A stretch of DNA of 64,000 nucleotides, from positions 10,996 to 74,995 of the forward strand of contig JBMOME010000054.1 in NCBI GenBank assembly GCA_049323095.1, given 5' to 3'. The translations under genes and the position numbers were made by a program. Source of the DNA: Thermodesulfobacteriota bacterium. GTDB lineage: Bacteria > Desulfobacterota > Desulfomonilia > Desulfomonilales > Desulfomonilaceae. Each line of letters starts with the position of its first letter. Position 1 is the stretch's first letter. A model generated the notes under the pieces. The model was not told the DNA's origin and ran no database searches. It saw only the letters and a program-made list of their open reading frames with translations. Positions 42,752 through 64,000 of the stretch are shown here, piece after piece.

Positions 42752-45847
<3,096 letters not shown>

Positions 45848-46477: not shown

Positions 46478-48211
46478 TTAGAACTCGCCCACGAAGGCCA
46501 TGTATCCGCCGATCACCGGGTCGATCACACGGTCGGGACGCGTCCCCCAGTTGTTATCCCCGTCAAGATTTGCCGGCGTGTCCCAGCCCGTGACGCCGAT
46601 GTCCTTGCACGCGTAGCTGAACCATTTGCCCGGCTGCCAGTAGCCGATCAGCGCCTCAAACCGGAAGCCCTCCAGGAGCCTCCAGTCAAGCCCGAGGTCA
46701 ACTTCCCAACCAAGGTTGCTGTCGGGAATGCTCGGAACAGCGCCCAGCCCTAGCGCAGCAGCCCCCGCGGGGAAATAGTTGTACACCACGTTCCCGACAA
46801 CAGTAGGGGAAATAAAGCCCCAGGGATAGGACTTGCTCACCCGGTCGGCCCACAGGAAGCTCGCCCAGGTGTTCAGATTCGCGGCAACTGCGTAATCAAC
46901 GCGCGACGCGTAAGCTATAGCATCGTGCAAGCTCCCCTCACGGCTAAATGCGGCGCTGAAGCCGTCATTGCCGCCACCATACTGGTTGGCGAGGAGCCAG
47001 CTGTACGGTCGGATCAGAACGCTATTGCACAGAACCGGCCTGATGATCGCGGTGCCGGCTACACCATGGGGCGGGATAGCGGCCGGGAGCCATCCCTGCG
47101 TGTCATTCAGCGCTCCTGCGCGGCGATCCAATCCTCCGCTCCAGTACAACATACCGCTCACTTTAAGAGGTCCTGCCACAGCGCCGACGATGCCTACGGC
47201 CTTCCAATCTTCAATATACGTCGGCCTCGTCGCCACACCCACGAGCCCTCCGCCAATTGCTGCGGGGCCGCCTGGGCTGGTGTTCATGGCCTGTTGGAAT
47301 TTGTCTATCCTCAGATAATGAGTAGCCTCGGCATTGAGGAAGAATACGCCGTTATTGAACTTCACGTAGTACGAGGCATGATGGTCGGCCCTATCAAAGG
47401 TGAGCGTCGCCTGTCGAACTGCAAGAGTAGCTGCTCTTTCAACACCCCCATGAATAAAGGTGTAGTCCTGAAAGGTCCCCAGATCGATGTTGCCCGCGGT
47501 GTAGGTTATGAATCCCGCCACTTCCGGCGCGCGCACCCCAGACCTGTCACGGATGTCACCCAAGTACGTCTGCCCTGACCTGAACGGGTACCCTGCCAGG
47601 CCGATACGAATAGGTCCGTAAGGCACGACCAAAAGCAACGAGTCGCTCGACAGGTTGTCGGTTCCGTCATATTGGAGCCCGAGTCCGAATGCGAAGGGGC
47701 GCTTGCCCATCGCGACGATACCCCAGGGCGTCTGCGCAGTGAGCCAAAACAGATACCACTGACCGTCCGTGAACGCGACCTTCATGCCGGGATTAACGCT
47801 ATTGGGGTTCTCGGATTCGAGCTGAATCCCATATCGGCCGAGATGGTAGCGTCCCCTCAGACGCACGGCCTGATTGATCCGAACCTCGGGATCGATGTCC
47901 GCCCACATGGTCTGGGACGATGCGTCATGGCCTGTCTTTATCTCAGTTGTGCCCAGATCGGCGCGAGTGCCCAAGTCGTTATTTCCCGCCCAAAAATTGA
48001 TGTTGGTCGCGTTGCCGACGACCGCGCCTTGGTCAACTCTGTCATAGATGCCGAAAAACCCCTGGTTGCCCAGCTGGCCGGCCCAGTACCATTTCCACCA
48101 ATACGCGCCTTCCATATGGAACTCCCACGCGAATGCGGGAGTCACCATGAGACACACGGCCAGTGCTATTCCCAGCACCGGAACTTTTCGCAATATTTTC
48201 GGGCGGATCAT
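46478..48211 (-). CDS. putative outer-membrane beta-barrel (porin-like) protein
   Basis: The ORF-track start is 48238. I prefer ATG 48211, with GAGGAGG upstream. Signal peptide MIRPKILRKVPVLGIALAVCLMVTPAFA. It is aromatic- and Gly-rich with alternating-pattern strands and ends in ...MAFVGEF, a terminal Phe typical of outer-membrane barrels. Confidence 0.7.
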   Translation of the reverse strand: MIRPKILRKVPVLGIALAVCLMVTPAFAWEFHMEGAYWWKWYWAGQLGNQGFFGIYDRVDQGAVVGNATNINFWAGNNDLGTRADLGTTEIKTGHDASSQTMWADIDPEVRINQAVRLRGRYHLGRYGIQLESENPNSVNPGMKVAFTDGQWYLFWLTAQTPWGIVAMGKRPFAFGLGLQYDGTDNLSSDSLLLVVPYGPIRIGLAGYPFRSGQTYLGDIRDRSGVRAPEVAGFITYTAGNIDLGTFQDYTFIHGGVERAATLAVRQATLTFDRADHHASYYVKFNNGVFFLNAEATHYLRIDKFQQAMNTSPGGPAAIGGGLVGVATRPTYIEDWKAVGIVGAVAGPLKVSGMLYWSGGLDRRAGALNDTQGWLPAAIPPHGVAGTAIIRPVLCNSVLIRPYSWLLANQYGGGNDGFSAAFSREGSLHDAIAYASRVDYAVAANLNTWASFLWADRVSKSYPWGFISPTVVGNVVYNYFPAGAAALGLGAVPSIPDSNLGWEVDLGLDWRLLEGFRFEALIGYWQPGKWFSYACKDIGVTGWDTPANLDGDNNWGTRPDRVIDPVIGGYMAFVGEF

Positions 48212-48681: not shown

Positions 48682-49746
48682 ATGAACATGAACAAGGGGA
48701 AGCGGATAGCTCTTGTCTGCGTAATTGCTGCCGCGGGCGTGGGCATCGCGATCTGGTGGCTTTGGTCAAGCCCGCAAGGCTCCACCGACACCAGGATCTT
48801 TGTCAGCGGCAATATAGAGGCCACCGAAGTGGATCTTTCCTTTCGATTGGGTGGCCAGATTGACTACTTGCCAATTGAAGAAGGCGACAGCGTCACCGCA
48901 GGCCAAGTGGTGGCGCGGCTGGACACACGCACCCTCGAAGCACAGAAAAAGGCAGCGGAAGCGGAACGGGCCGCAGCTCAGGCGACTTTGGACGAGCTGG
49001 TAACCGGCTCTCGAGTGGAAGATATAGAGGCGGCAAGAGCAGTATTGAAGGCTTCCGAAAGAAGGCTGGAAAACGCGCGAGCAGATTACGAGAGATATGT
49101 TCCTTTGTACAAACAGGGAGCCATATCCGCGTCCGCTTTCGATGCTCGTGAAACCGCGTACAGAGTAGCCCTTGAGGAACATAAGAAGGCGCGGGAAGAC
49201 CTTACCCAATTAGAGGTCGGTCCTCGGGAAGAGCGAATCCGGGCGGCTCGACACCGCTTGGACCGGGCAAAGTGGGAACTGGAGAAGATTGAGCTGGATC
49301 TCACGTACTCTGTGCTGCAGAGCCCCATCAACGGCGTGGTTCTGGTCAAATCCAACGAAAATGGAGAGGTGGTGCTGCCTGGCGCCACAGTTGCTACCGT
49401 CGCGGGCATCAACGAGGTGTGGCTCAAGGGATACGTGGGAGAAAAATACCTGGGCAAGATCAAGCTCGGTCAGACCGCGGAGATCACCACGGACACCTTT
49501 CCCAACAAGAAGTACCAGGGGCGGTTGACGCTGATTTCATCTCGTGCGGAATTCACGCCCAAGAATGTGCAAACGCCTGAAGAGCGCATCAAACAGGTGT
49601 ATCGAGTGAAAGTTACCATCCCAAACGTCCACCAGGAACTGAAAATCGGTATGCCCGCAGAGGGTTACATTCTGGTGGATTCCGAGCCTCCCAAACCGAC
49701 CGCCGACAACTCTCGGGTCGGCAGCGGTCCGGGTGCGCGACCGTAA
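48682..49746 (+). CDS. HlyD-family periplasmic adaptor (YbhG-like)
   Basis: 354 aa. It has an N-terminal anchor, a lipoyl-like domain, a long coiled-coil hairpin (AQKKAAEAERAAAQATLDEL...) and a beta-barrel domain. Confidence 0.9.
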   Translation: MNMNKGKRIALVCVIAAAGVGIAIWWLWSSPQGSTDTRIFVSGNIEATEVDLSFRLGGQIDYLPIEEGDSVTAGQVVARLDTRTLEAQKKAAEAERAAAQATLDELVTGSRVEDIEAARAVLKASERRLENARADYERYVPLYKQGAISASAFDARETAYRVALEEHKKAREDLTQLEVGPREERIRAARHRLDRAKWELEKIELDLTYSVLQSPINGVVLVKSNENGEVVLPGATVATVAGINEVWLKGYVGEKYLGKIKLGQTAEITTDTFPNKKYQGRLTLISSRAEFTPKNVQTPEERIKQVYRVKVTIPNVHQELKIGMPAEGYILVDSEPPKPTADNSRVGSGPGARP

Positions 49747-49767: not shown

Positions 49768-50745
49768 GTGTTTCCCATGCCACAAGATCCCATCATAAGG
49801 ACGGAAAAGCTCTGTCGCGATTTCGGACGTCACCGAGCTCTACGCGATTTGGAAATGACGGTGGAACGGGGTGAGATATTCGGTGTGGTGGGGCCCGATG
49901 GAGCAGGCAAAACTACCGCGATACGCATCCTCGCAGGCATCCTCGCGCCCACGTCCGGTAATGCATGGGTGGATGGCATTTCGGTAGTTGAGGATCCCGA
50001 GCAGATCAAAGAGCACATCGCGTATATGCCGCAAAGGTTCGGCTTGTACGAGGATCTGTCGGTAATTGAGAATCTCCTTTTCTATGCGGACTTGTTTCAG
50101 GTCCCCAGGAAGTTGAGACCCGAGCGGATTGAACGCCTGTTTGCCTTCAGTAGGTTGGGCCCGTTCAAGGACCGGCTCGCGGGTGCCTTGTCGGGCGGAA
50201 TGAAGCAAAAGCTGGGCCTCGCGTGCGCCCTGATTCATTCGCCCAGGCTCCTGCTCCTCGACGAACCGACCAACGGCGTTGATCCTGTATCGAGGCGAGA
50301 CTTCTGGAAGATCCTGTACGATCTTCTGCGCGAGGGGATCACCATATTGGTATCCACGGCCTATTTGGACGAAGCGGACAGGACGAACCGCGTCGGGTTA
50401 ATGCACAACGGCACGCTGATCCATTGCGACCAACCACATCTAATTCGGGCTCTGGTTAAAGGCCTGTTTTACGAGCTGGTGACCGAAGACCTGCCCAAGA
50501 CCAAGGAACTTCTCACGGATGTGCCGGGCATTCTGGATCTGAACCTCTTTGGTGAAGGCCTTCACGTCCGAGTCAGCAACGAGCAGGAGATAGCGGACGC
50601 GCGGCGCCTCCTGGAAGAAAAGGGCATGGCGATCTATTCTTTGAGGCGTATTACTCCGGCCATGGAAGATGCTTTTCTCTCAATCATGCAGAGTCAGGAA
50701 TCAAGACAGGACACGCAGGGAGTGTATAGTGATTGCCAAGAATGA
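49768..50745 (+). CDS. ABC transporter ATP-binding protein (first half of a YbhF-like pair)
   Basis: 325 aa. GPDGAGKTT, LSGGMKQKLGLACAL, LLLDEPTNGVD. The start is uncertain (GTG 49768 or ATG 49777). Confidence 0.85.
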   Translation: MFPMPQDPIIRTEKLCRDFGRHRALRDLEMTVERGEIFGVVGPDGAGKTTAIRILAGILAPTSGNAWVDGISVVEDPEQIKEHIAYMPQRFGLYEDLSVIENLLFYADLFQVPRKLRPERIERLFAFSRLGPFKDRLAGALSGGMKQKLGLACALIHSPRLLLLDEPTNGVDPVSRRDFWKILYDLLREGITILVSTAYLDEADRTNRVGLMHNGTLIHCDQPHLIRALVKGLFYELVTEDLPKTKELLTDVPGILDLNLFGEGLHVRVSNEQEIADARRLLEEKGMAIYSLRRITPAMEDAFLSIMQSQESRQDTQGVYSDCQE

Positions 50746-50771
50746 TGTCCGATTCACGGCGGCTGCACCCC

Positions 50772-50872
50772 GTCATTCCTGCGGAAGCAGGAATCCAGTT
50801 CTGACGGTTTGGTACAAAGTTTTCCACTATTCACTCGTTGAGTTCCTGGATTCCCGCGTACGCGGGAATGAC
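50772..50872. repeat. paired REP units (GTCATTCCTGCGGAAGCAGGAATCC ... GGATTCCCGCGTACGCGGGAATGAC) between the two ATPase genes
   Basis: Units at 50772-50796 and 50848-50872. Same family as 12648-12707. Confidence 0.8.
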
Positions 50873-50955
50873 GAATAATGGCTCACTAGCTACGTCCTCT
50901 GGAGATTTCCAATGCATGGCCAAACGGACAGAATCTCGGACAACCGGTGTAATTC

Positions 50956-51936
50956 GTGAATCCATTGAACAATGATATCGCTGTCTTCGCCAAGGATCTG
51001 ACCAAAACCTTCGGGAGTTTCGTTGCTGTGGACCGGGTGAGCTTCGAGGTTGAGCGCGGGGAGATCTTCGGGTTTCTCGGTCCGAACGGCGCAGGCAAGA
51101 CTACGACCATAAAGATCCTGTGTGGGCTTCTGACACCGACTTCAGGCGAAGCATCGGTTGCCGGCCGGGATGTTTCCACCGAGTACGAAGAAGTGAGAAA
51201 GCAGATTGGGTATATGTCTCAGAAGTTCTCAATTTACGAAGACTTAACCGTGGCGGAAAACCTTGAATTTTTCGGCGGGGTGTACGGGCTGAGCGGAAAG
51301 GACCATGAGCAGCGGGCACAATGGGTCCTTGAAATGACCGGGCTCACGGACGAGCAAAAGACCCTCACCAGCGAGCTGCCTCTCGGGTGGAAACAGCGAC
51401 TGGCGTTGGGGTGTGCAGTGCTGCACACTCCACCGATCGTCTTCCTGGATGAGCCTACCTCGGGCGTCGATCCGATATCACGCCGCAACTTCTGGGGCCT
51501 TATTCACGAAATGGCCGCGCAGGGTGTAACCAGTTTCGTGACCACGCACTACATGGACGAAGCAGGGTACTGTAACCGACTCGCGCTCATGTCTCAGGGA
51601 AGAATCATAGCCATGGACAATCCACGCGAGCTCAAGACCCGGTGGATGACCGATTCGGTAATCGAAATGGAGTGCTCTGACGTTCTCACCGCGTTGGATG
51701 TGCTGAAGGACGACCGCTTCTTTTCTGAAGTCGCGGTATTCGGCAACCAGTTGCACATTGTTGCGGATGATCCTGAGCCGGCCAAGGAGCGAGCACGACA
51801 ACTCCTCAAGGCAAAGGGCGTCACCATAGTTCGGGCAGAGGTAGTGTCTCCGTCGCTGGAAGACGTGTTCGTCACGCTCACATCGCAAGACCGCAATAGT
51901 CATTCAGCTCCCGCGGCGTCCGAGAGTCATGATTAA
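50956..51936 (+). CDS. ABC transporter ATP-binding protein (second half of a YbhF-like pair)
   Basis: 326 aa with a GTG start. GPNGAGKTT, LPLGWKQRLALGCAV, VFLDEPTSGVD. Confidence 0.85.
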   Translation: MNPLNNDIAVFAKDLTKTFGSFVAVDRVSFEVERGEIFGFLGPNGAGKTTTIKILCGLLTPTSGEASVAGRDVSTEYEEVRKQIGYMSQKFSIYEDLTVAENLEFFGGVYGLSGKDHEQRAQWVLEMTGLTDEQKTLTSELPLGWKQRLALGCAVLHTPPIVFLDEPTSGVDPISRRNFWGLIHEMAAQGVTSFVTTHYMDEAGYCNRLALMSQGRIIAMDNPRELKTRWMTDSVIEMECSDVLTALDVLKDDRFFSEVAVFGNQLHIVADDPEPAKERARQLLKAKGVTIVRAEVVSPSLEDVFVTLTSQDRNSHSAPAASESHD

Positions 51937-53065
51937 TATCCATCGCACACTGGCTGTCGCACGAAAAGAAACCTGGCATGTGGTGCGAGACACCCATTCG
52001 CTGTACCTCGCGCTGGGAATCCCTGTGATGCTTCTGTTCCTATTCGGCTATGCCCTTTCACTGGATGTGGACAATATCCCGCTTGCAGTCTGGGATCAGG
52101 AACGTTCACCGCAATCGCGGGAGCTTATAGACCGCCTGACAAGCTCAGGCTATTTCCAGCTCGTTCTTTATGCTGATTCTTTTCAGGAGATGGTGCGTGC
52201 CGTCGATGAACGGGTTGTGACCGTTGGTATCACCATTCCTCATGATTTCAGCCGCAATGTGCTCAGGTCCGGCGGCGCGGACGTTCAGGCCTTCCTCGAT
52301 GCGTCCGATTCGACCCGCGCAGGTATCGCGATCACGTATTTCGAAAGCATCTTGGCCATCTTTCTGGACGACCACTTCAAGAAGGAACTGACTCGCCAGG
52401 CTGTCACAAAAGTGCAAATCCCCTTGGAGTCCCGCGTGAGGCTCCTGTACAATCCCGAGCTCCAGAGCCGCATCAACATCATACCCGGGCTCATCGCGAT
52501 CATTCTGATGGTAATAGCCGCGCTGATTACCTCCCAGACCATCGTGCGGGAACGAGAATCCGGCACCATGGAACAACTGATTTCCACCCCGGTGAAGGCT
52601 TCGGAACTGGTGATCGGTAAGCTCGTGCCGTACTTCGTGCTCGGGTATGTGGATCTGTTGATAATTTATCTCATGAGCCAGTTCGTGTTCGCGGTGCCCT
52701 TTCGGGGGAGCGTACTGCTGATGTTTCTCCTCTCCGCGCTCTTCCTGGTGGGATCCCTTTCGCTGGGGCTGCTCATATCCGCGTTTGCCGACAGTCAGCT
52801 CTTCGCGACGCAGTTTGCGCTTCTGGGGACTTTTCTGCCCTCGTTTATCCTATCCGGCTTTGTCTTTCCCATAGCCAACATGCCGTGGGTGATTCAGGCT
52901 TTCTCGTACATCGTTCCTGCCAGGTACTACATCACCATTCTCCGGGGCATTTACCTCAAGGGCGTAGGAGTGGAGGTCCTTATCTTTCCGGTGATATTGC
53001 TGGCCCTTTTCGGGCTGATCACCGCGTTCCTGGCATCCACGAGGTTGGGAAAACAGTTGCAATGA
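51929..53065 (+). CDS. ABC-2 type transporter permease (YbhS/YbhR-like)
   Basis: 378 aa. N-terminal TM, a large extracytoplasmic loop, then five C-terminal TMs. The start overlaps the ATPase gene. Confidence 0.85.
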   Translation: MINIHRTLAVARKETWHVVRDTHSLYLALGIPVMLLFLFGYALSLDVDNIPLAVWDQERSPQSRELIDRLTSSGYFQLVLYADSFQEMVRAVDERVVTVGITIPHDFSRNVLRSGGADVQAFLDASDSTRAGIAITYFESILAIFLDDHFKKELTRQAVTKVQIPLESRVRLLYNPELQSRINIIPGLIAIILMVIAALITSQTIVRERESGTMEQLISTPVKASELVIGKLVPYFVLGYVDLLIIYLMSQFVFAVPFRGSVLLMFLLSALFLVGSLSLGLLISAFADSQLFATQFALLGTFLPSFILSGFVFPIANMPWVIQAFSYIVPARYYITILRGIYLKGVGVEVLIFPVILLALFGLITAFLASTRLGKQLQ

Positions 53066-54321
53066 GCGATTCGCACGGGACCGACCGAACAATCGTGGAT
53101 CCCGCGTTCTTCAAGAAGGCGCTGGACAACGGCCGGCCGCGTGCCGATTCACGCAGTCCTTTCAAGCAAGGATTGTCGAGAATCCGGCACGTCATACGCA
53201 AGGAATTCATTCAGATAGTCCGCAATAAGCAGAATTTCCGAATCCTCCTGATCGCTCCGATCTTCCAGTTAATCCTGTTTGGGTACGCGGTCCGGCTGGA
53301 TGTGAAGGAAGTAGCCACTGTAGTGGTCGATATGGACCGGAGCGTTGTTAGTCGCAACCTGGTGGAGTCGTTCACGCGGTCGGGATATTTTGTCATCAAG
53401 GAATATCTCACATCTTACGATCAGGCCGATTATTACCTGGAAAGAGGTGAAGCCACGGTAGCGCTTCTCATTCCGCCCGATCTGGAGCGTCGCGTCAAAG
53501 CAGACCAGACCACCCAAATCGGTGTACTCGTGGATGGGGTGGACACTACCACCGCAGGAACGGTCTCAGGATGGGCCCAGGCGATCATCCAAGGATACGC
53601 TTTTGAACTGATGCAAAAGGACATCCAGTGGGCTCGAGGCCTCCGATTCAGCCTGAATTCTCCGACGCTTCTCATTCCATCCATTAACGCCAAGCCACGG
53701 GCATGGTTCAATCCCAATCTGGATTCTAAGGATTATTTCGTCCCAGGCACTCTCGTCCTGATCCTCATGTTCCTCGCGGTCACATCAACAGCAATGGTGA
53801 TCGTGCGGGAAAAGGAGAAGGGAACCATAGAGCAGATTATGGTGACGCCAATCAGCAAGTTAGAGCTGATCCTGGGCAAGACCATCCCGTGCTTCATCAT
53901 CGCCGTGGCCAACCTCGTGTTTATGACCATCCTTGCGTTCCTTGTCTTTCAGCCCATCTTCAAAGGTTCTCTCTTCATCTTCATGATGGGAGGGATCGCC
54001 TTCACCATTACGTGCCTCGGCATGGGCATGACCCTATCGGTCTTCTGCCGAACGCAGCAGCAGGCTGTGCTCTCTACGTTCTTCGTCATGCAGCCGGCTT
54101 CGATCCTGTCTGGCTTTGTTTTCCCCATCGACAACATGCCCACAGTGATTCAGTACGTGACGTACTTGAATCCGCTGCGATACTACATAGTCGTCGTGCG
54201 GGAAGTATTCCTCAAGGGAGTAGGCTGGGACCTGCTCTGGCCGCAATTCGTGCCCTTGGTCGCCATGAGCGTGGGGTACATCCTCCTCTCCTCATTCCTG
54301 TTCAAAAAGAAGATCGACTGA
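53062..54321 (+). CDS. ABC-2 type transporter permease (YbhR/YbhS-like)
   Basis: The ORF-track start 52885 lies inside the previous gene. ATG 53062 overlaps its stop (ATGA). It has the same topology as its neighbour. Confidence 0.85.
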   Translation: MSDSHGTDRTIVDPAFFKKALDNGRPRADSRSPFKQGLSRIRHVIRKEFIQIVRNKQNFRILLIAPIFQLILFGYAVRLDVKEVATVVVDMDRSVVSRNLVESFTRSGYFVIKEYLTSYDQADYYLERGEATVALLIPPDLERRVKADQTTQIGVLVDGVDTTTAGTVSGWAQAIIQGYAFELMQKDIQWARGLRFSLNSPTLLIPSINAKPRAWFNPNLDSKDYFVPGTLVLILMFLAVTSTAMVIVREKEKGTIEQIMVTPISKLELILGKTIPCFIIAVANLVFMTILAFLVFQPIFKGSLFIFMMGGIAFTITCLGMGMTLSVFCRTQQQAVLSTFFVMQPASILSGFVFPIDNMPTVIQYVTYLNPLRYYIVVVREVFLKGVGWDLLWPQFVPLVAMSVGYILLSSFLFKKKID

Positions 54322-54405
54322 TTTAGGCGTGAACCGTGCGGAGCCTGGGGAGCTGTGGCGCCAATGCGGTGCCACGTTTTGTGCTCGTGCTTCTTTTGTC
54401 AATTG

Positions 54406-54586: not shown

Positions 54587-54601
54587 CCAATTATGACGAA
54601 C

Positions 54602-55614: not shown

Positions 55615-58600
55615 CAATCAGGCTGCCGTTTGAATTGCGTATACCGCTGTTGTACGTCAATCCGCCCGCTAATGCCGACCCACGGCTCATCGAGGTCGTC
55701 TCAAAGGCCGGGGGCTTGGGCTTTGTCGATCACGCGACCGCGGGACCAGCCGCGTTCTCGGTTCAAGAAGGGACGCCACACGGCGTGCGGATCAGACTGG
55801 ACGCCCTGAAGAACTCCCTGTTTGGCCCTAATGTGAAAGCTTGTCTCATTCCTCTGGAGGATGCGGATGACGTGGCCCGGCTGGACCCGGGTGAACTGAA
55901 GGCGTTCCCGGTTCCTGTGCTCGTCGAGGTCGGTTCCGCGGCTCAGGCCGCTGGAGCGGAAAAGGCCGGCGCAGCCGCTCTCGTTGCCCGCGGGAACGAA
56001 GGACCCGGTTGGGTGAGCGAGCGGAGCGGCCTTGTGCTGCTCCAGGAAATATTAGGCGTGTGCCCGCTGCCGGTCTTTCTCCAGGGTGGAATCGGACTGC
56101 ATACCGCGGCAGGAGCCGTTGGGGCAGGAGCGACCGGTGTGGTGCTGGATGTGCATCTCCTTCTTACTGAGGAATCAGTCATTAACGCCTCGCTCAAGAG
56201 TTTCTTCTCAGCGCTTGGCATCCCAGCGACCGTTACCCTTGGTGAGGCTTGGGGAAAACCGTGTCGCGTGTACTCCAGAGTCGGCACTCGGATGGTACGG
56301 GAGCTGCGCAAGGTTGAAGATTCGCTTGGGCAAGACGAGTTCCACAGTCTCAAGGAGTGCATCAATGCGGCTCTGGGAAAGAACACAGCTTCGCTGGACA
56401 CTGACGATGCTCTCCTTGCCCTGTCAGAAGACATCGTGACCGCAAAGACGCTGGCAGGCGAGTTTGCCAGAGCGCGAGCCATCCTGGAGGAATTTGCTCG
56501 ACGCATGGAATCGCGCTGCGGCACATGGCCGTTTGCCGAAGAATCGGGCCTGTGCAAAGCGCATGGCACCCTTTTGCCCATTGTTCAAGGTCCTATGGCT
56601 CATGTGAGCGACAATCCTGATTTCCTTGCGGCAGTTGCTCAGGGTGGAGCGCTCCCATTCCTAGCCATGGGAAACATGCCTGCTCCCATCGCACGCGAAG
56701 GAATCGAACTGGCGCGCAGCAAAACAAACGGCAAGTTCGGCGTGGGCTTGATCGGCCTGGAGGTGAACCGTCATTGCTACGAAGCTCACCTGGAGATCAT
56801 GAAAGAGAACCCGCCGCCCTTTGCCATCCTCGCGGCGGGCAGTGTGGAGTTGGCCCAACGCATCGAAGAGATGGGCACAGTCTGCTACCTCCATTGTCCT
56901 GCGCCTACGCTGGTCTCTGAAGGGGTCAAAGCCGGACTCAGACATTTTGTCTTCGAAGGATGCGAATCAGGCGGCCACATTGGAGCCTTGGGCAGCCTTG
57001 ACCTTTGGGAAGCTAATCTGCGGGAATTGGAACAAGCAGCCCGAGACGGGATCTCCTTGGCAGAAGTGAGCGTGCTGTTTGCCGGAGGCATTGCCACAGC
57101 CAGGGCGTCTGCTTTTGTGGCCGGCATGGTCGCGGACCTGGCCGCACGAGGACTCCGGGTAGGCCTCCAGATGGGCACCGCGTACTTGGCTACGTCGGAA
57201 GCAGTCTCCACGTGTGCCATTACCCAGACGTATCATGGGCTCACGCTTGAGAGCGACCGCACCGTTGTTATCGGACGGACGGTTAATACCCGCGCGCGGG
57301 CTGCGGCTTCTCCTATGGCATCCCAATTGATCTACCGCGAACAGGAACGTGTCCGTAGCGGCGTGCCCTTGCGTGAACGCAAGGAGCTGTATGAGAAGGA
57401 CAATCTGGGCTCACTGAGGCTTGCTGCTAAAGGATGCGCCATAGATCCATCCACCGCGACCTGGGATTGCCCGGTCTTTTGCGACTTGCCGCCCAAAGAG
57501 CAGTACGATAGCGGCTTGTACCTTATGGGTCAGGTGGTCTCGCTGCTCAATTCGCCGACCACGATTGAACAGCTGCATCGAGAAATCATCGTTCAAGGCC
57601 GCGAGGTCTTCAAACAGGGATCTGTGCACCCTGAACCGCAGCTCCAAGAGATCCCCGAACTGCCTGAGACTCAAATAACGGTCGAAGTGGAGCATCCGCA
57701 CGAGCCCATCGCAATTGTCGGCATCGGGCTAAGATTTCCCGGTTCGGATTCGCCGGAAGGCTTTTGGGATCAGATCAGGAGCGGGAGAAGCGGCATCATC
57801 GACGTTCCGCCGGGACGCTGGGATGATCCTGATTTCTACTATGATCCCGATCCTTCGGTCCCTGATAGGACTTATTCCCGCATTGGCGGGTTTATCGAAG
57901 GTTTCGTGTTCGACCCGCTCAAGTACCGGATACCGCCTGCAGTGGCCCAGAAGATGGACCGCACGCAGCAGATGGCTGTCGCCTGCGTAGGGGATGCGCT
58001 CGCGGACGCGAAGCTCTCGCCTGACGATCTGAAGGGCAAACGCGTAGGCATCATCCTGGGAAACAGCATGGGGGGCGAGACCACGGATTTGTATGCAACC
58101 CGTGTGGGACTTCCGCGGACCCTGGCCTGCCTTGAGCGGTCATTCGAAGGTCTCAATGTGCCGGCTGAGGCTCGTGAAGAGCTTCTGGAACGCTTCAAAG
58201 CTGCATACCTGGCGAACCTGCCTGTAATTACCGAGGACTCGCTGCCGGGCGAGCTTGCCAACGTTATTTCGGGCCGGGTCGCGAACGTTTTCAATTTGGA
58301 AGGACCCAACTTCACCGTGGACGCGGCCTGTGCCTCCTCGATGGCTGCGATCATGAACGCTGTAGCGGGTCTGCGAGACGGCACCATCGATTATGCAGTC
58401 ACCGGCGGTGTGGATGCGGCTATGCATCCCAGCTCGTTCGTGAAGTTTTGCAAGATCGGCGCACTATCCCCTGACGGGAGCAGGCCCTTTGATGCAGGCG
58501 CAAACGGATTCGTCATGGGAGAAGGTTGCGGGATCTTGGTCCTGAAGCGGCTCTCCGACGCAATACGAGACAATGACCGCATCTATTCAACCATTCTGGA

Positions 58601-61600
58601 AGTGGGTTCGTCTTCAGACGGCAAAGGCAAAGGGATCACCGCGCCCAACGCAGCCGGACAGGAGAGGGCCGTACGCGCTGCCCTGGCAACAGGCAACATC
58701 TCGGCGATGTCTTTGGGTCTCATCGAAGCTCATGGAACCTCAACCGCAGTGGGCGACAAGACCGAGCTGATGGTTCTGGACAAGCTCCTGAGAGATGCCG
58801 GCCTCCCAGCGCAATCGGTGGGCATCGGATCGATCAAATCTCAGATTGGGCACTTAAAGGCTGCGGCCGGAGCAGCAGGAGTGCTGAAAGCCGCGCTCAG
58901 TTTGTACCATCAGACTATGCCGCCCACCATTAATGTGAAGAACCCCAACCCCTGCATCGACTGGGAAACTTCGCCGCTCTTTCTCGTTACCGAGCCGCGG
59001 AAATGGGAACCATCGGGCAGTGTTCCGCGGCGGGCCGGCGCGAGCGCATTCGGTTTCGGGGGAACCAACTTCCATATTTGCCTCCAGGAGCATGTTCCGG
59101 GCCTGCGAGTTATCAAAGGCGGCAGACAAGAGCCCCAATCTATATCCGTCTTGCCCCCCGATTGGCCAAAACCCGCTGAATTGCCCCTCTCGGGTGAAGC
59201 GTGGGTGCTCGGGGCCCACGACATGCAGGACCTGGCCGCGAAGATTGCAGCAATCAAGACTGAATTAGTCGAAGGGAATTCCCAGGCGCTTGCCAGTCGT
59301 TGCAGAGAGGCTGCTCCGGCATCTCCACTTCGATGCGGGTTTGCAGCAGTATCTTCTGAAGAAGCGACCAAGAAACTCACCTTGATTGGGGAAGCCATCG
59401 CGGATCCCAAGAAGGCCCCAGCGCTCCGCGCAAGAGGTATCCATTTCAGCGAACGCGCTGTGGAACGATCCGGTGCTGGAATCGCGTTCCTCTTTCCAGG
59501 GCAGGGATCGCAGTATCCATACATGTTCAGGGATTTGGCCGAGCAGTACCCAGTGGTGGCCGAAACTTTCCAAGAGGCTGATGAGATTGTCGCTTCTCTA
59601 GGCCTTCCTCCGCTCACGAGCGTTGTTTTCCCCGACCCTGGCGCTGCTCAGGATACGAGCGCGGCTGCCGATGCCATGAAGGATACCCAGCTCCTACAGC
59701 CCATGATCCTGACTGCAAACACTGCGATGTTCCGGCTCCTGGAACAGATGGGCGTGCGTCCGGTCTCGTGTGCAGGCCATTCCCTGGGCGAGTACGCTGC
59801 GTGCGTCGCTGCCGGAGTCTTTTCGTTCCGAGACGCCTTGGAAGCGGTCGCGGTGCGTGGCAGGGAAATGGCCAGAGTGAGCATCGACGATCCGGGCCTC
59901 ATGATGAGCATATCTGCGGATGCGCGCTTGGTTGAGGAGGTGCTGAGCCAGGTCGACGGATACGTGGTTGCCGCGAACAAGAATTCGCCCAAGCAGACAG
60001 TTATATCGGGCCTCACTCATGCGGTGAAGCAGGCCGCGGAGCTCTTCAAAGCCCGCGGGCTCGAAGGAGCGATCCTGCCGGTTTCTGCCGCGTTCCATTC
60101 CGGTGTGGTCGCCCCCGCAAGAGAGCCCTTTATGGAGACGCTCCGGCGTCTCACCGTCAAACAACCGACCGTGCCGGTTCTATCAAACGTGACCGGCGAC
60201 TTCTATCCGGTCGGTCCCGCGGCCCCGGGCAAGATCCGGGATTTGCTCGGCAAGCAGTTTGCCGCGCCTGTGGAGTGGGTAAAGACCTTGCGCAAGATGT
60301 ATGCAGAGGGGATACGCATTTTCTTGGAATGCGGCCCCAAGCGGGTTTTGACCAACCTTACTCTGGATACACTTCCTGGCGACGTGCTGGCCCTGGCCAC
60401 CAATCACCCGAAGAAGGGCGGCATTATGCAGCTCATGGAGGCTCTGGCTGCTCTTTCCGTGGAAGGCGTGAATTTCGACCTGGCTGGGCCTCAGGCTGCC
60501 GCAAGTCAACGTAAAGAGCGGCCTGTGTTGATGCTGGTGAAAGAGACGACCCAGACGGCATCAAAAGAGGCCGTGCCTGCTCTCGCGACTGCGTCCAATC
60601 CGCTCGATCCGCTGCTCGATCCGCAGCTCCGCGAAGTCGCGTCAAAGGCCGAATTCCCGCGATATCTCGAATTGCAGGCAGAGCCTATCCGCGCGCTGAT
60701 CAAGACCGGGTTCGATACGTATCTCAAGAGCATCCTGCCGATGGAAAAGACCGTTATCCAGGTCAAGTCCGAAGGTATGGACTTCCAGCCCGTAGTCATC
60801 AGCGGGATATCGGCAGGGCTGCCCAGCGACGTGCGTTTCCCCTTTGATCGAGAGACCATGGACGACCTGATCCTGGGCCGCAATTTCATCAAGCGCGTCC
60901 CTGAGCAGGGCCTGCACGACATGGTCGAAAAGAACATCGAGCGCCTGTACAAAGGCCCCGACGGCGAAGCAGAACTGCATCTGGTGCAGGATACCGACGG
61001 TGTGATCAAACTGGCCGGGTACTTCAGCGAATATCATCTCGCGCAAGAATACGGCATCGATCAGCGCTTGGTCGGCTCTATGGATGTCACGACACAGCTT
61101 GCTCTGATGGCAGGCATCGAAGCGCTTAAAGACGCGGGTATTCCATTAGTGCGGCAAACCCGCACCACGAGCACTGGTCTTGAGCTGCCCGATGCGTGGG
61201 CGCTCCCTGAACCGTTGCGGGCTGAAACCGCGGTGATCTTCGCTTCAGCCTTTCCTGGATTAGTCTCCCTGGTGGATGAGCTTACCCGCGAGGCCGCGAG
61301 TCGATACGGCTCAGGGGCTCGCAAGAGACTGATTGAATTCTACACAGGGCTGATCGGTCGGGTGCAAGATGACAAGGAGCGTGATGCCATAACCGCATGG
61401 TTCTCTGAGGAATTCGGCAGGATCAACCATGTGGAATCGGAAGAAGTTTACTCATTCAACCGGAGTTTTCTCTTGCGGGTCCTGAGCATGGGTTCGGGGC
61501 AATTGGCTCAGTTCATCAGGGCTCAAGGTCCCAATAGCCATGTAGATGCGGCCTGCGCAAGCACCACCCAGGCGATTCTGTTGGCTCGTGACTGGATCCG

Positions 61601-64000
61601 TACGGGCCAAGCAAAAAGGGTCTTGGTAGTGGCGGCCGACGATGTGGCCGGCAAGACGCTCTTCCCGTGGATAGGGTCCGGTTTCCTCGCGATGGGCGCG
61701 GCCACGACAAAAGAAAGTGTTACCGAAGCTGCGCTTCCCTTTGATGACCGAAGGAATGGATTGATACTAGGTTCCGCGGCTGTGGGCCTAGTCCTGGAAA
61801 AGGAGAGTCTCACAAAGAAACGGGGCATGGAAGCCCTGGCCGCGATCGAAGCCGGTATCAGCGCGAACAGCGCGTACCACGGGACCCGCCTTGACCAAGA
61901 CCATATCAGTGCTGTCATGCGCCGCATGATCGAGAAGTGGGAAGAACAGACCGGGCGCTCGCGACAAGAACTGGCCAAGGACGTGGTCTTCATGTCCCAC
62001 GAAACCTATTCGCCCAAACGCGGTGGCAGCTCCGCGGCGGAAATACAAGCGCTGCGTGAGACCTTCGGCGATAGCGCCAGAGAGATCCCTATCGCCAATA
62101 CCAAAGGATTTACCGGCCATACCATGGGCGCGGGAGTCGAGGATGTGGTCGCGATCCGGTCGCTCCAGAAGTGCCTGATACCGCCCATTCCCAACCTGAA
62201 GCAGCCCGATCCGGAGTTCGCAGACATGAATCTCAGCCGTGGCGGTTCATGTCGAGCAAACCACGTCTTGAGACTGGCCGCAGGTTTTGGTTCGCAGATC
62301 GTGATGGCTGTTTACAAGATCCTCAGCCGTCAAGAAAACCGAATCACCGACCTTGCCGCACACCGGCAGTGGCTCAAGGAGATCACCGGCTATGCCGATC
62401 CGGTGATCGCGGTGGAAGAGCGCACCCTTCGCGTGGTCCAACGCGGAGCCGCAGGTGCTGCGATGCAGAAGGCAGCTGTTGCGGAGGCGGAGGTTGCAGC
62501 TAAGCCGACCGCGGGACTTACTGCAGATGCTGCAGAAGTCAGGGAAAAGATCCTGACGCTCCTTTCGGACAAGACCGGGTACCCGCCGGACATGCTCGAT
62601 ACTGGCCTTGACCTGGAAGCAGACCTTGGCATCGATACGGTGAAGCAGGCAGAGTTCATCTCCGACGTTCGAGAGACATTCGGCATTCCGCGCATTGAAG
62701 GGCTCAAGATCGCGGATTTCCCGACCATCGAGCACATCATTCGTTTCGTGCTTGAACACACCGGCCGACAATCGGATTCCACCCAGGGAACCGCGGCCGG
62801 CGGTCAGGATATTGAAGCCATCCAAACTACAATCCTGCAATTGCTTTCGGACAAGACCGGGTACCCGCCCGATATGCTCGATCCTGACCTTGATCTGGAA
62901 GCCGATCTCGGCATTGATACGGTGAAACAGGCTGAATTCATAAGTGAGGTGCGGCAACGGTTCGGTATTCCTCGCATCGAAGGCCTGAAGATTGCTGATT
63001 TTCCGACCATTCGGCACATTGTGGGCTTTGTGAAAGAGCGGAGCAGGCACGAATCACCCGTGCAGGAAGACGCCAGTAAAACCAGCGACGAGGAAAAGAC
63101 TTCGCTAGCCGAACCAGAGGTCCGTCTGTACGAAGCCAGACTTGTCCGAGTGCCTAAACCGGTCGAGATGCCCTCGCCGGAAGCTGACCAAGTGGTTATA
63201 GCCGGAAGCTCAGCGGAACTGGCCGATGCTCTGGAAGAGGAGCTTCACCAGCTCGGGTACGACAACGTGCAGCGAATCTCCAACCCGGCCCAAATTGAGC
63301 AGCACGCGGCGACTCGCATCGGCGTTGTGAACCTGTTCCCATTGAGCAAGAACGCGCAGGGGCTCAAAAACACTTTCGACCTGTACGTGAGGCTCGCGAA
63401 GTCGTATGAAAAGGGCCCATCATTCCTGGTGACCCTGGTCTCCCAAGACGGCGCTTACGGTTTTGATTGCCCCACTACCGATGGATACCTGTCAGGAGCC
63501 GCGGCCGGAGCCACGAAATCCTTTGCGCGGGAATTTCCGGAGAGCACGGTGCGATTGCTCGATGCCCATCCGGATCTCGATCCGACTCAAACGGCGCAAT
63601 TTCTGGCTCGTAGTCTCAAAGAGAGCTTCCCGTTGGAGACGGGAGTTGCTGGAGACGGGTGGCTTCGGGCAATCAGACTGGTTCCAACTATGGGACCCCA
63701 GGAAGAGGCCCCGCTCAGCGCAGGAGATGTGATTCTGTGCAGCGGAGGCGCGCGGGGCATCACCGCGTCATGCCTGACGCATCTTGCGAGGCAAGGCTCC
63801 TTTACGTTTGTGATCCTTGGCCGAACTGCCTTGTCAGACAGGGCAGAACAAAGGGCCCAGTATGGCCCTGAGCAATGGCAGCAAGAGAAGACCCGCATCA
63901 TAGACCGCATGAAGCGAGAAAGTGCCACGCCGACTCCGGTCGCGGTTGAACGGGAGCTGTCCCGGCTTCAGGCAGAAGCCGAGGTTTTCCGCACCCTGAC
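55611..64000 (+). CDS. type I PKS / PUFA-synthase-like megasynthase, first 2796 codons (3' end beyond the window)
   Basis: Not in the ORF track because it is open at the window edge. I translated the frame codon by codon and found no stop. Domains read from motifs: an NMO/ER-like barrel without GGH (about 55640-56170); a PfaD-like enoyl reductase (PIVQGPMAHVS, FEGCESGGHIG, about 56571-57240); KS (DAACASS, Cys codon 58329-58331; EAHGTSTAVGD; SQIGHLKAAAG; about 57701-59090); malonyl-type AT (FPGQGSQY; GHSLGEY, Ser codon 59781-59783; AAFHS; about 59478-60360); a second KS (DAACAST, Cys codon 61554-61556; about 60790-62320); two carrier domains (about 62530-62760 and 62812-63040); and KR (SGGARGITA, 63741-63764, continuing to the edge). 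Confidence 0.9.
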   Translation, partial: MTIRLPFELRIPLLYVNPPANADPRLIEVVSKAGGLGFVDHATAGPAAFSVQEGTPHGVRIRLDALKNSLFGPNVKACLIPLEDADDVARLDPGELKAFPVPVLVEVGSAAQAAGAEKAGAAALVARGNEGPGWVSERSGLVLLQEILGVCPLPVFLQGGIGLHTAAGAVGAGATGVVLDVHLLLTEESVINASLKSFFSALGIPATVTLGEAWGKPCRVYSRVGTRMVRELRKVEDSLGQDEFHSLKECINAALGKNTASLDTDDALLALSEDIVTAKTLAGEFARARAILEEFARRMESRCGTWPFAEESGLCKAHGTLLPIVQGPMAHVSDNPDFLAAVAQGGALPFLAMGNMPAPIAREGIELARSKTNGKFGVGLIGLEVNRHCYEAHLEIMKENPPPFAILAAGSVELAQRIEEMGTVCYLHCPAPTLVSEGVKAGLRHFVFEGCESGGHIGALGSLDLWEANLRELEQAARDGISLAEVSVLFAGGIATARASAFVAGMVADLAARGLRVGLQMGTAYLATSEAVSTCAITQTYHGLTLESDRTVVIGRTVNTRARAAASPMASQLIYREQERVRSGVPLRERKELYEKDNLGSLRLAAKGCAIDPSTATWDCPVFCDLPPKEQYDSGLYLMGQVVSLLNSPTTIEQLHREIIVQGREVFKQGSVHPEPQLQEIPELPETQITVEVEHPHEPIAIVGIGLRFPGSDSPEGFWDQIRSGRSGIIDVPPGRWDDPDFYYDPDPSVPDRTYSRIGGFIEGFVFDPLKYRIPPAVAQKMDRTQQMAVACVGDALADAKLSPDDLKGKRVGIILGNSMGGETTDLYATRVGLPRTLACLERSFEGLNVPAEAREELLERFKAAYLANLPVITEDSLPGELANVISGRVANVFNLEGPNFTVDAACASSMAAIMNAVAGLRDGTIDYAVTGGVDAAMHPSSFVKFCKIGALSPDGSRPFDAGANGFVMGEGCGILVLKRLSDAIRDNDRIYSTILEVGSSSDGKGKGITAPNAAGQERAVRAALATGNISAMSLGLIEAHGTSTAVGDKTELMVLDKLLRDAGLPAQSVGIGSIKSQIGHLKAAAGAAGVLKAALSLYHQTMPPTINVKNPNPCIDWETSPLFLVTEPRKWEPSGSVPRRAGASAFGFGGTNFHICLQEHVPGLRVIKGGRQEPQSISVLPPDWPKPAELPLSGEAWVLGAHDMQDLAAKIAAIKTELVEGNSQALASRCREAAPASPLRCGFAAVSSEEATKKLTLIGEAIADPKKAPALRARGIHFSERAVERSGAGIAFLFPGQGSQYPYMFRDLAEQYPVVAETFQEADEIVASLGLPPLTSVVFPDPGAAQDTSAAADAMKDTQLLQPMILTANTAMFRLLEQMGVRPVSCAGHSLGEYAACVAAGVFSFRDALEAVAVRGREMARVSIDDPGLMMSISADARLVEEVLSQVDGYVVAANKNSPKQTVISGLTHAVKQAAELFKARGLEGAILPVSAAFHSGVVAPAREPFMETLRRLTVKQPTVPVLSNVTGDFYPVGPAAPGKIRDLLGKQFAAPVEWVKTLRKMYAEGIRIFLECGPKRVLTNLTLDTLPGDVLALATNHPKKGGIMQLMEALAALSVEGVNFDLAGPQAAASQRKERPVLMLVKETTQTASKEAVPALATASNPLDPLLDPQLREVASKAEFPRYLELQAEPIRALIKTGFDTYLKSILPMEKTVIQVKSEGMDFQPVVISGISAGLPSDVRFPFDRETMDDLILGRNFIKRVPEQGLHDMVEKNIERLYKGPDGEAELHLVQDTDGVIKLAGYFSEYHLAQEYGIDQRLVGSMDVTTQLALMAGIEALKDAGIPLVRQTRTTSTGLELPDAWALPEPLRAETAVIFASAFPGLVSLVDELTREAASRYGSGARKRLIEFYTGLIGRVQDDKERDAITAWFSEEFGRINHVESEEVYSFNRSFLLRVLSMGSGQLAQFIRAQGPNSHVDAACASTTQAILLARDWIRTGQAKRVLVVAADDVAGKTLFPWIGSGFLAMGAATTKESVTEAALPFDDRRNGLILGSAAVGLVLEKESLTKKRGMEALAAIEAGISANSAYHGTRLDQDHISAVMRRMIEKWEEQTGRSRQELAKDVVFMSHETYSPKRGGSSAAEIQALRETFGDSAREIPIANTKGFTGHTMGAGVEDVVAIRSLQKCLIPPIPNLKQPDPEFADMNLSRGGSCRANHVLRLAAGFGSQIVMAVYKILSRQENRITDLAAHRQWLKEITGYADPVIAVEERTLRVVQRGAAGAAMQKAAVAEAEVAAKPTAGLTADAAEVREKILTLLSDKTGYPPDMLDTGLDLEADLGIDTVKQAEFISDVRETFGIPRIEGLKIADFPTIEHIIRFVLEHTGRQSDSTQGTAAGGQDIEAIQTTILQLLSDKTGYPPDMLDPDLDLEADLGIDTVKQAEFISEVRQRFGIPRIEGLKIADFPTIRHIVGFVKERSRHESPVQEDASKTSDEEKTSLAEPEVRLYEARLVRVPKPVEMPSPEADQVVIAGSSAELADALEEELHQLGYDNVQRISNPAQIEQHAATRIGVVNLFPLSKNAQGLKNTFDLYVRLAKSYEKGPSFLVTLVSQDGAYGFDCPTTDGYLSGAAAGATKSFAREFPESTVRLLDAHPDLDPTQTAQFLARSLKESFPLETGVAGDGWLRAIRLVPTMGPQEEAPLSAGDVILCSGGARGITASCLTHLARQGSFTFVILGRTALSDRAEQRAQYGPEQWQQEKTRIIDRMKRESATPTPVAVERELSRLQAEAEVFRTL

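Follow-up and report, generated by a model that had tools for sequence, protein, structure and literature searches.

The analysed stretch of DNA (64 kb, hereafter the window) carries eight consecutive genes at this locus, all of them present according to ORF calls and family profiles (Table 1): a gene for a porin-like outer-membrane barrel, the five genes of an ABC exporter, a tetR gene and a megasynthase gene that runs past the window end. The run of eight genes and the gene identities proposed in an earlier note on this DNA were borne out by the ORFs, by Pfam and NCBIfam profiles and, for the barrel, by a structure model. The genes fall into three transcription units, namely the porin gene, the exporter operon and the tetR–megasynthase operon. 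Rfam and tRNA scans of the 64-kb window gave a sole match, one tRNA-Leu far from the locus, and thus no riboswitch or sRNA that would join the operons. One further ORF, at 55943-56581 on the minus strand, was rejected as a gene, since it lies antisense inside the conserved synthase frame.

Table 1. Genes, regulatory elements and motifs of the locus, in window coordinates
Feature	Position	Strand	Basis
Terminator-like hairpin and T-run, just past the porin stop codon	46414..46441	-	hairpin scan
Porin-like outer-membrane beta-barrel, 577 aa	46478..48211	-	ORF, signal peptide, AlphaFold/Foldseek
HlyD-family periplasmic adaptor, YbhG-like; first gene of exporter operon	48682..49746	+	Pfam, NCBIfam
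ABC ATPase 1 (DrrA/RbbA-like nucleotide-binding domain)	49768..50745	+	Pfam, NCBIfam
REP-like inverted-repeat pair in the 210-bp spacer between ATPase 1 and ATPase 2	50771..50873		repeat scan
ABC ATPase 2	50956..51936	+	Pfam, NCBIfam
ABC-2 permease 1; 8-nt overlap with ATPase 2	51929..53065	+	Pfam, NCBIfam
ABC-2 permease 2; ATGA overlap with permease 1; last gene of exporter operon	53062..54321	+	Pfam, NCBIfam
Intrinsic-terminator-like hairpin, then TTTTGTGCTC; 33 nt past exporter operon	54354..54376	+	consensus match
REP-like inverted repeat (hairpin of the earlier note)	54405..54489		repeat scan
Predicted sigma-70-like tetR–synthase promoter: TTGACA, 17-nt spacer, TTATAA	54557..54585	+	consensus match
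Candidate inverted-repeat operator ACGAACTGGTCAGTCA ... TGACTGACCATTACGT, between promoter and tetR	54596..54639	+	repeat conservation
TetR-family regulator, 319 aa	54655..55614	+	Pfam TetR_N; NCBIfam; exact-match gene call
Iterative type I FAS/PKS-like 'secondary lipid' megasynthase; runs past window end	55611..64000	+	ORF, Pfam, NCBIfam
Carrier-domain motif 1, DLGIDTVKQAEF; Thr ACG 62637-62639 at the canonical Ser position	62622..62657	+	motif alignment
Carrier-domain motif 2, DLGIDTVKQAEF; Thr ACG 62919-62921 at the canonical Ser position	62904..62939	+	motif alignment

The porin-like protein was matched by no Pfam or NCBIfam model and is classified only by structure prediction. Its gene likely starts at the ATG at 48211, 6 nt downstream of a GGAGG (the listed ORF begins at TTG 48238), and its product has a signal peptide ending in AFA, followed by WEF, and a C-terminal Phe residue. 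The AlphaFold model (pLDDT 77) contains 18 long strands and finds AlgE, MOMP, OprD, ScrY and OmpF among PDB structures by Foldseek, which backs the outer-membrane barrel called earlier. The fold is porin-like and not TolC-like, with no OEP domain in Pfam searches and no periplasmic alpha-helical tunnel in the model. The terminator-like hairpin directly 3' of the stop codon indicates that the porin gene is monocistronic.

The slot between the SNF2 helicase gene (42752-45847) and hlyD, in which the porin gene lies, is occupied by a member of the same family in three loci (the window, L091 and L115) and is empty in four others (L088, L098, L121 and L122). In L091, it holds a paralogue with only 28% identity, surrounded by DNA that is ~85% identical and genes that are 90-96% identical to those of the window; the porin gene body was swapped between the two. 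This porin family is lineage-specific and multi-copy, and its paralogues sit in unrelated contexts, by FeoAB, transposases, phosphate-binding-protein genes or sugar-modification genes. Judged from these sequence comparisons, the porin is not a conserved partner of the exporter. HlyD-family adaptors dock on TolC-type ducts, and it is very unlikely that the porin-like barrel instead provides the outer-membrane exit of the exporter as part of an envelope-spanning machine. Such a role would agree with the divergent adjacency to hlyD, with the recurrence of the family in the slot of three loci and with AlgE, a polymer export barrel, being among the best structural matches, but it conflicts with an 18-strand porin fold devoid of a helical tunnel, with the four empty slots and with the scattered genomic contexts of the paralogues. 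The divergence of the porins amid nearly unchanged flanking genes further argues against a specific protein–protein interface. A TolC-like outer-membrane factor is therefore not supplied by the neighbouring porin, and the exporter presumably pairs with a TolC-type duct whose gene may lie elsewhere in the genome.

The first product of the exporter operon matches HlyD_D23 (E 9.5e-21) and HlyD_3 in Pfam and, as its top NCBIfam match, PRK03598 (260 bits, under the 393-bit equivalog cut-off); its orthologues are annotated as YbhG or HH_YBHG (PF25881). Both ATPase genes belong to ABC_tran with best matches of the DrrA/RbbA type, both permeases match ABC2_membrane_3 (E 2e-50 and 2.5e-48), and the genes overlap or abut within the operon. 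All equivalog models score under their cut-offs for these genes; the combination of the adaptor, two nucleotide-binding domains and two ABC-2 permeases bears out a YbhGFSR-type exporter. The 'split ABC ATPase' described before indeed comprises two ATPase genes, which are separate genes in the same frame with four stop codons between them. A fused YbhF interrupted by a frameshift or a stop was rejected, given the four stops in the spacer and the unfused state of the genes in all relatives seen. The REP-like element of this spacer has further copies at 12647-12708 and 27939-27966 in the window, and the whole spacer is missing in the closest relative, L091, where the gap is 7 bp. Exporter homologues with 35-43% identity were found without the synthase in L100-L117. 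At least 120 rows of HlyD orthologues (identity >=59%) compare with ~20 clusters of orthologues of the synthase N-terminus (identity >=53%), and exporter orthologues thus appear far more numerous than those of the synthase.

Several elements separate the exporter operon from tetR. Downstream of the intrinsic-terminator-like hairpin lies the REP hairpin, with arms at 54405-54428 and 54466-54489 that are 92% complementary and a core of which the window has further copies at 37598 and 18386, where 0.08 chance matches would be expected. This hairpin is real, and the caveat of the earlier note, that the REP region divides the exporter operon from tetR, was justified. The predicted promoter of the tetR–synthase operon has a -35 element that is invariant across 14 orthologous loci, and the promoter together with the inverted repeat is kept in 14 loci from 10 lineages, whether the exporter is nearby or not; the inverted-repeat operator is kept in each of the 10 related lineages with a tetR gene. 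This candidate operator occurs as a single copy in the 64-kb window, at the tetR promoter only, and was found upstream of neither hlyD nor the porin gene in the window or in six related loci (L091, L088, L115, L121, L122 and L098). A two-mismatch half-site in L098 was rejected as part of a different palindrome, TTAACTGGTTAGTTAA.

The GTG start of tetR was confirmed by the exact-match gene call. Its product has a TetR_N domain (E 1.4e-18, Pfam) and a conserved N-terminal extension of ~115 aa, and the rest most resembles acyl-CoA-sensing regulators of the FadR/FasR type, with all scores under the family cut-offs (72 bits against 200 for the FadR-type model NF053878; 55 against 330 for the FasR-type model NF053731). 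The top PDB matches, 5gpa, 3whb and 6o6p, cover residues 113-301; the last of these belongs to the entries 6o6n/6o6o/6o6p, which are structures of FasR. The tetR stop and the synthase start overlap as ATGA in the window and in orthologues, and upstream of the synthase tetR is the partner that is conserved. With this conserved overlap, the promoter and the operator, control of the synthase by TetR, as suggested in the earlier note, is very likely.

A TetR-family regulator, CecR (YbiH), controls ybhGFSR in E. coli (PMC12998191, PMC7190983), and CecR is among the weak NCBIfam matches of the TetR described here. It is nonetheless highly improbable that this TetR is the regulator of the exporter and stands before the synthase incidentally. 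The CecR model gives 23.6 bits (cut-off 365) against 72 bits for FadR, the operator lies only at the promoter of tetR itself, and tetR stays joined to the synthase start where no exporter is nearby. No dedicated CecR/YbiH-like TetR precedes the exporter, the only TetR of the locus being encoded downstream and coupled to the synthase.

The megasynthase begins at ATG 55611 and comprises at least 2796 aa in the window and 3531 aa on an identical public contig. Its domain order is ER'-ER-KS-AT-KS2-ACP-ACP-KR followed, beyond the window, by DH and a fused C-terminal PPTase. Profile matches include TIGR02813 (PfaA) and TIGR03151, and the protein combines a PfaA-like KS-AT-(tandem ACP)-KR core with an ER of the FabK/NMO type. 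The second KS keeps its active-site Cys (DAACAST) and is therefore not a chain-length factor. The dehydratase domains are of the PKS type only (PS-DH, PKS_DH_N), and domain searches of the megasynthase revealed neither a PfaC-like pair of KS and chain-length factor with FabA-type dehydratase/isomerase nor a thioesterase or any other function recognisable as serving release or export.

To our knowledge, textbook carrier proteins all bear Ser at the attachment site. Both carrier domains in the window contain LGIDTVKQAEF, as do all copies in the synthase clade (31/31 across 15 loci), and in an alignment with the PigH carrier domains this Thr falls on their Ser. The canonical LGIDS(I/L) motif, with its phosphopantetheine Ser, is not found in this synthase clade; among distant homologues, LGIDS is present in 44 of the 44 in which the motif could be detected. 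The cluster members of the Thr-type synthases carried hardly any taxonomic labels beyond 'bacterium' and one Thermoplasmatota MAG. Within the searchable library, the literature searched held nothing relevant on Thr-type carrier motifs or threonine phosphopantetheinylation. We tentatively propose, at somewhat less than even odds, that these proteins represent a class of PUFA-synthase-like enzymes, large and so far undescribed, in which the invariant Thr would be the prosthetic-group site of tandem carriers primed by the PPTase of the same chain, as a private pair insulated from the other PPTases of the cell, and whose product might be cargo of the neighbouring ABC-2 exporter where both are kept together. 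If the Thr is phosphopantetheinylated, the known chemistry of carrier priming would be extended and an orthogonal carrier/PPTase pair would become available for engineering.

The genomic association of the exporter and the synthase was compared among Desulfomonilaceae orthologues with ~9-10 kb of upstream sequence, which provided ~10 informative lineages. The exporter stands beside tetR, at a spacing of 0.3-0.7 kb, in two lineages only, represented by the window with L091 and by L088. In four lineages, unrelated genes that differ from one lineage to the next separate the two. The gap widens to 3.4 kb in L095, which is closely related to L088, to 7.3 kb in L002, where it is filled by HMA2, MetK and a P-type ATPase, and to 8.5 kb in L080, L089 and L090, with a Mo-oxidoreductase, MarR, a flavodoxin-like protein and PadR. 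In L081, the exporter is inverted and 5.8 kb off, with rubrerythrin, an M48 peptidase, a cyclase and MMPL between. Among the remaining loci, L001, L005, L007, L008 and L087 have no exporter in the 9-10 kb upstream of tetR–synthase, and none of ~70 synthase homologues from other phyla has it upstream. The synthase therefore does neighbour the exporter in some relatives, so that the outcome named in the earlier note as refuting its proposal, homologous synthases never found next to these exporter genes, was not strictly observed; the link is nonetheless weakened.

In L081, the MMPL gene, from a lipid-transporter family, adjoins tetR, which hints that such synthases may recruit transporters.

In 5 of the ~10 informative lineages, scattered over a star-like tree, the 10 kb upstream of tetR–synthase contain the exporter, and gene content downstream of the synthase is not conserved between these lineages; the linkage thus proves more durable than gene order in most of the neighbourhood. 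A functionally unrelated gene, that of the SNF2 helicase, stands divergently beside hlyD in L091, L088, L098, L121 and L122 and is at least as constant a companion of the exporter; this control rests on the window/L091, L088, L098 and L121/L122, the upstream side of the exporter being out of view in L002, L080, L090 and L081. With such a helicase as an equally constant neighbour, the recurrence of exporter and synthase looks like an inherited chromosome backbone.

The proposal that all eight genes form one dedicated make-and-export unit is not supported, because the operons have separate control elements, the synteny is patchy and the porin slot is variable. A version of it that leaves out the porin is unlikely. 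In this version, the ABC-2/HlyD exporter of this subclade would move the lipid made by the synthase from the inner membrane in the manner of DevBCA-HgdD, and selection would hold the neighbourhood together despite separate transcription. Direct adjacency in the window, L091 and L088, the persistence of the exporter nearby in five otherwise rearranged lineages and the lack of a thioesterase or recognisable release function in the synthase are consistent with this version, as is the existence of ABC-2 plus HlyD exporters for lipids or glycolipids (DevBCA, PMC6161253). Against it stand the unrelated housekeeping genes between the operons in four lineages and the inversion of the exporter in one, its absence from the 9-10 kb upstream in five lineages as well as near every distant homologue, the equally conserved SNF2 neighbour, the absence of an operator common to both operons, the apparently far larger number of exporter orthologues and the low score of the adaptor with the DevB model TIGR02971 (76.9 bits, cut-off 129).

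The most plausible scenario, to which we assign a probability of roughly 65%, is that three independent units lie side by side on a backbone inherited within Desulfomonilaceae and that the exporter is not dedicated to the synthase. The porin gene would have its own promoter and terminator, in a slot that is variably empty or holds different paralogues. The five genes of the YbhGFSR/RbbA-type ABC-2 efflux operon would most likely serve general efflux or envelope maintenance. The tetR–megasynthase operon would be self-contained, with TetR translationally coupled to the synthase and most likely repressing its own operon by binding the conserved inverted repeat that closely follows the promoter; by analogy with TetR proteins of the FadR/FasR type, an acyl-CoA or acyl product probably lifts this repression. 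The 3531-aa synthase carries the full set of activities needed to extend a chain iteratively with complete reduction, and its carrier domains are presumably primed by the PPTase domain of the protein itself.

That an exporter and a synthase lie side by side, and do so repeatedly among relatives, is thus no evidence of a biosynthesis-export unit here: an unrelated helicase accompanies the exporter just as faithfully, and the two operons have control elements that are separate and conserved. The module that is defined consists of tetR and its conserved candidate operator, together with a reducing synthase that is a single protein and includes its own PPTase. The synthase gene measures 10.6 kb, and the module is small enough for cloning in one piece from an uncultured lineage of sulfate reducers.

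In mycobacteria, fas and acpS are organised in an operon. The present arrangement resembles the FasR/fas-acpS system in having a TetR beside a type I synthase linked to a PPTase, and FadR of Bacillus and FasR give the best full-length matches of the window TetR, all under cut-offs; the extra conserved N-terminal ~115 aa set it apart from both. The exporter shares with E. coli YbhGFSR and its paralogue YhiI-RbbA/YhhJ the YbhG-like adaptor, two nucleotide-binding domains and two ABC-2 permeases in one operon, whereas the nucleotide-binding domains that are fused in YbhF/RbbA are encoded here by separate genes, with no CecR-like regulator upstream. Heterocyst glycolipids are made by the products of hgl polyketide synthase genes and exported by DevBCA-HgdD (PMC6161253), a system alike in concept, as the product of a Pfa-like synthase leaves through an ABC transporter with an HlyD-family adaptor. 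DevBCA works with HgdD, a TolC-like duct, whereas the outer-membrane protein encoded beside the present exporter is a porin. The adaptor falls short of the DevB model, and the exporter is adjacent in 2 of ~10 lineages and near no distant homologue. The closest parallels of the megasynthase are the Pfa-type 'secondary lipid' synthases, above all the 5'-ER types J, L, M and N (Shulse & Allen 2011, PMC3098273), with which it shares the FabK/NMO-type ER, the PfaA-like KS-AT-tandem ACP-KR core, an associated PPTase and the TIGR02813 match. It differs from them in being a single 3531-aa polypeptide with a degenerate extra N-terminal ER-like domain and a fused PPTase, in having a second KS with cysteine and a PKS-type DH in place of PfaC-like FabA dehydratases, and in bearing Thr for Ser in its carriers and a dedicated tetR ahead of its gene.

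The genes at 46478-64000, which the earlier note had proposed as a single make-and-export unit, comprise all eight listed members and none extra; the shared unit itself is only partly supported, as the genes resolve into three transcription units. The most plausible scenario, to which we assign a probability of about 0.65, is that three independent units stand together by descent: an exchangeable porin gene, a general efflux operon of the YbhGFSR-like type and a tetR-synthase operon that is self-contained and autoregulated. Its basis is the gene content, the gene overlaps, a conserved promoter and operator, and the distribution of neighbors among related loci (L-numbered contigs, with L091 being the closest relative).

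Features of the porin-exporter-synthase region and its flank
Feature	Coordinates	Strand	Remarks
SNF2-family (SNF2/RapA-like) helicase gene	42752-45847	-	1031 aa; synteny control
Strong terminator-like hairpin	46414-46441		after the stop codon of the porin-like gene
Porin-like gene	46478-48211	-	577 aa; signal peptide …AFA/WEF; C-terminal Phe; own Shine-Dalgarno sequence, ATG at 48211
Exporter genes	48682-54321	+	HlyD-family adaptor (hlyD), two ABC ATPase genes, two ABC-2 permeases
REP-like element, CGTCATTCCCGCG..GCGGGAATCCAG as paired hairpins	50771-50873		inside the 210-bp spacer between the ATPase genes; other copies at 12647-12708 and 27939-27966
Terminator-like hairpin with T-run	54354-54376		first element after permease 2
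REP-like repeat	54405-54489		between terminator-like hairpin and promoter-like site
Promoter-like site, TTGACA-17-TTATAA	54557-54585		after REP-like repeat, before inverted repeat
Inverted repeat (putative operator), ACGAACTGGTCAGTCA…TGACTGACCATTACGT	54596-54639		between promoter-like site and tetR
TetR-family regulator gene (tetR)	54655-55614	+	GGAGG after the inverted repeat, then GTG start
Giant synthase ORF	55611 to past window end	+	ATGA at 55611-55614, synthase ATG overlapping tetR stop
Carrier domains, both DLGIDTVKQAEF	62622-62657 and 62904-62939	+	Thr codons 62637-62639 and 62919-62921

Neighboring exporter genes adjoin or overlap each other (an 8-nt overlap of ATPase 2 with permease 1, and an ATGA shared by the two permeases), except at the spacer between the ATPase genes, which is absent in L091, where the gap is 7 bp. 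The REP-like element in this spacer may influence the polarity of the operon or the stability of its mRNA. The hairpin reported earlier between the exporter and tetR is confirmed, and the repeat family to which it belongs has further copies in the window. Among family models, the adaptor matches YbhG best (260 bits, under the model's cut-off), and the ATPases and permeases are closest to the DrrA/RbbA and ABC-2 families; overall, this is a YbhGFSR/RbbA-like system in which the nucleotide-binding domains are unfused, and its TolC partner would be encoded elsewhere.

Pfam and NCBIfam searches with the porin-like protein gave no match. Its model is an 18-stranded barrel (pLDDT 77, pTM 0.78) with AlgE, Campylobacter MOMP, OmpF/OmpC, OprD and ScrY as the best PDB matches, which makes it an outer-membrane porin and not a TolC-type duct. 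The family is multi-copy and specific to this bacterial group, and its paralogues adjoin feoAB, transposases, and genes for phosphate-binding proteins or sugar modification. The slot between the SNF2 helicase gene and hlyD is devoid of a porin in L088, L098, L121 and L122, while in L091 and L115 it is occupied by paralogues 28% identical to the window porin and 47% to each other. The window and L091 are collinear, with a DNA identity of about 85% to either side of the porin gene body, which itself (window 46051-48195 versus L091 3455-5450) shows no detectable DNA similarity; the gene's 5' end and upstream region are kept at 72%. The two loci differ by a porin cassette swap. A cassette that can be swapped in this way does not sit easily with a specific docking partner of the adaptor, and it is very improbable that the porin, for all its position beside hlyD, serves as the exit duct of the exporter.

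We searched with the synthase N-terminus and inspected the upstream gene contexts. Synthase orthologues with 60-72% identity were found only in Desulfomonilaceae/Syntrophaceae-type MAGs, grouping into about 11 lineages whose tree is star-like, and homologues with 30-38% identity are spread over many phyla. In every lineage but the basal L008, tetR lies directly upstream of the synthase with the identical stop/start overlap. The distance from the exporter to tetR varies: about 0.3 kb in the window and L091, 0.7 kb in L088, 3.4 kb in the closely related L095, 5.8 kb in L081 (inverted, with rubrerythrin, M48 peptidase, cyclase and MMPL genes between), 7.3 kb in L002 (HMA2, MetK and P-type ATPase) and 8.5 kb in L080, L089 and L090 (ferredoxin, Mo-oxidoreductase, MarR, flavodoxin-like protein and PadR). 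No exporter was found in the 9-10 kb upstream in L001, L005, L007, L008 and L087, nor were adaptor or ABC-2 permease genes of such an operon found within 10 kb of about 70 homologues from other phyla. In L081, a frameshift-split gene of the MMPL family of lipid transporters (6361-8765) lies directly upstream of tetR-synthase and offers another transporter candidate for this enzyme.

Reverse searches with permease 2 and with the adaptor revealed exporter homologues (35-43% identity) standing alone in many metagenomic contigs with 10-kb flanks. At least 120 orthologues of the adaptor reached 59% identity, compared with only about 20 synthase clusters above 53%; this rough comparison suggests that the exporter is much more widespread. 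In L121 and L122, it is followed by the Mo-oxidoreductase/MarR block, with no tetR-synthase within the visible 5.6 kb. The SNF2 helicase gene is divergent from hlyD in L088, L098, L121 and L122 and lies just past the porin gene in the window and L091 (68% identity to the window protein in L088 and L098, 93% in L091). It neighbors the exporter in all four other lineages examined (L091, L088, L098 and L121/L122); therefore, the exporter keeps the company of an unrelated housekeeping gene at least as faithfully as that of the synthase. A make-and-export system without the porin would fit the recurrence of exporter-synthase linkage in five lineages and a synthase in which no release or export function is obvious, yet this recurrence is as expected from a slowly eroding ancestral gene order, the erosion showing in unrelated insertions at the exporter-tetR junction that differ between lineages, and we consider such a system unlikely.

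Returning to three independent units, the tetR promoter/operator region is alignable across 14 loci from 10 lineages, with TTGAC, GTCAGTC and the second half-site invariant whether or not an exporter is nearby. Within the 64-kb window, the half-site occurs only upstream of tetR. The operator is absent upstream of hlyD both in the window and at five of six related loci examined; the sixth, L098, has there only a two-mismatch half-site of a different palindrome. Thus nothing suggests shared TetR control, and regulation of the exporter by this TetR, close as the two are in the window, is even less credible than the duct role of the porin. Palindromes upstream of hlyD, TTAACTGGTTAGTTAA in L098 (3380-3402) and TAATCTA…TAGATTA in the window (48430-48470), may be operators for another regulator. 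The TetR protein has an N-terminal extension of about 115 aa (54655-55000) that is kept in all orthologues and has no family match; the remainder best matches models and structures of Bacillus-type FadR and mycobacterial FasR, all under family cut-offs. TetR would repress its own tetR-synthase operon, and an acyl ligand would relieve this repression.

The full length of the synthase ORF, read from a public contig that is identical (no mismatch in 9540 nt), is 3531 aa. Its domain order is ER'(partial NMO)-ER(FabK-like)-KS-AT-KS2-ACP-ACP-KR-DH(PKS type)-PPTase, with the active-site cysteine of KS2 retained and no thioesterase seen in the domain analysis; its product would be a saturated or partly reduced long chain. 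The N-terminus (55611-56480, residues 1 to about 290) is a partial, degenerate NMO/ER-like domain preceding the complete ER, matching only the C-terminal half of the profile. By analogy with thraustochytrid PUFA synthases, whose ER domains are heterodimeric (PMC13311796), it may be a pseudo-dimer partner of the ER.

Both carriers have Thr at the phosphopantetheinyl-Ser position, in alignment with the PigH carrier-domain DS (PDB 5y08). This Thr is kept in 31 of 31 carrier copies from 15 loci (the window, L001-L008, L080, L081, L087, L088, L090 and L091), encoded by all four Thr codons and accompanied by synonymous changes throughout the motif, which places the selection on the residue. The motif is detectable in 44 distant homologues, and all of them have the canonical LGIDSIKRVEI. 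In a full-library HMMER search, 101 of the best 150 representatives were Thr-only, a count biased by the Thr-type didomain query; these proteins of 2000-4000 aa carry up to six tandem carriers. The Thr motif is therefore widespread in uncharacterised megasynthases, and a search of the available literature found no report of it. A PPTase-like C-terminal domain is present in 14 of 14 Thr-type proteins reaching at least 1000 aa past the last carrier, as well as in one Ser-type protein. If it is Thr that the fused PPTase primes, the chemistry would be new; otherwise these carriers work in another way.

Among known systems, the exporter and the porin are ordinary members of their kinds. The synthase, a single polypeptide, is related to the Pfa-type 'secondary lipid' synthases in the catalogue of Shulse & Allen (PMC3098273), and the tetR-synthase module, with its Thr-type carriers and fused PPTase, is a new variant of Pfa-like synthases and the part worth following.
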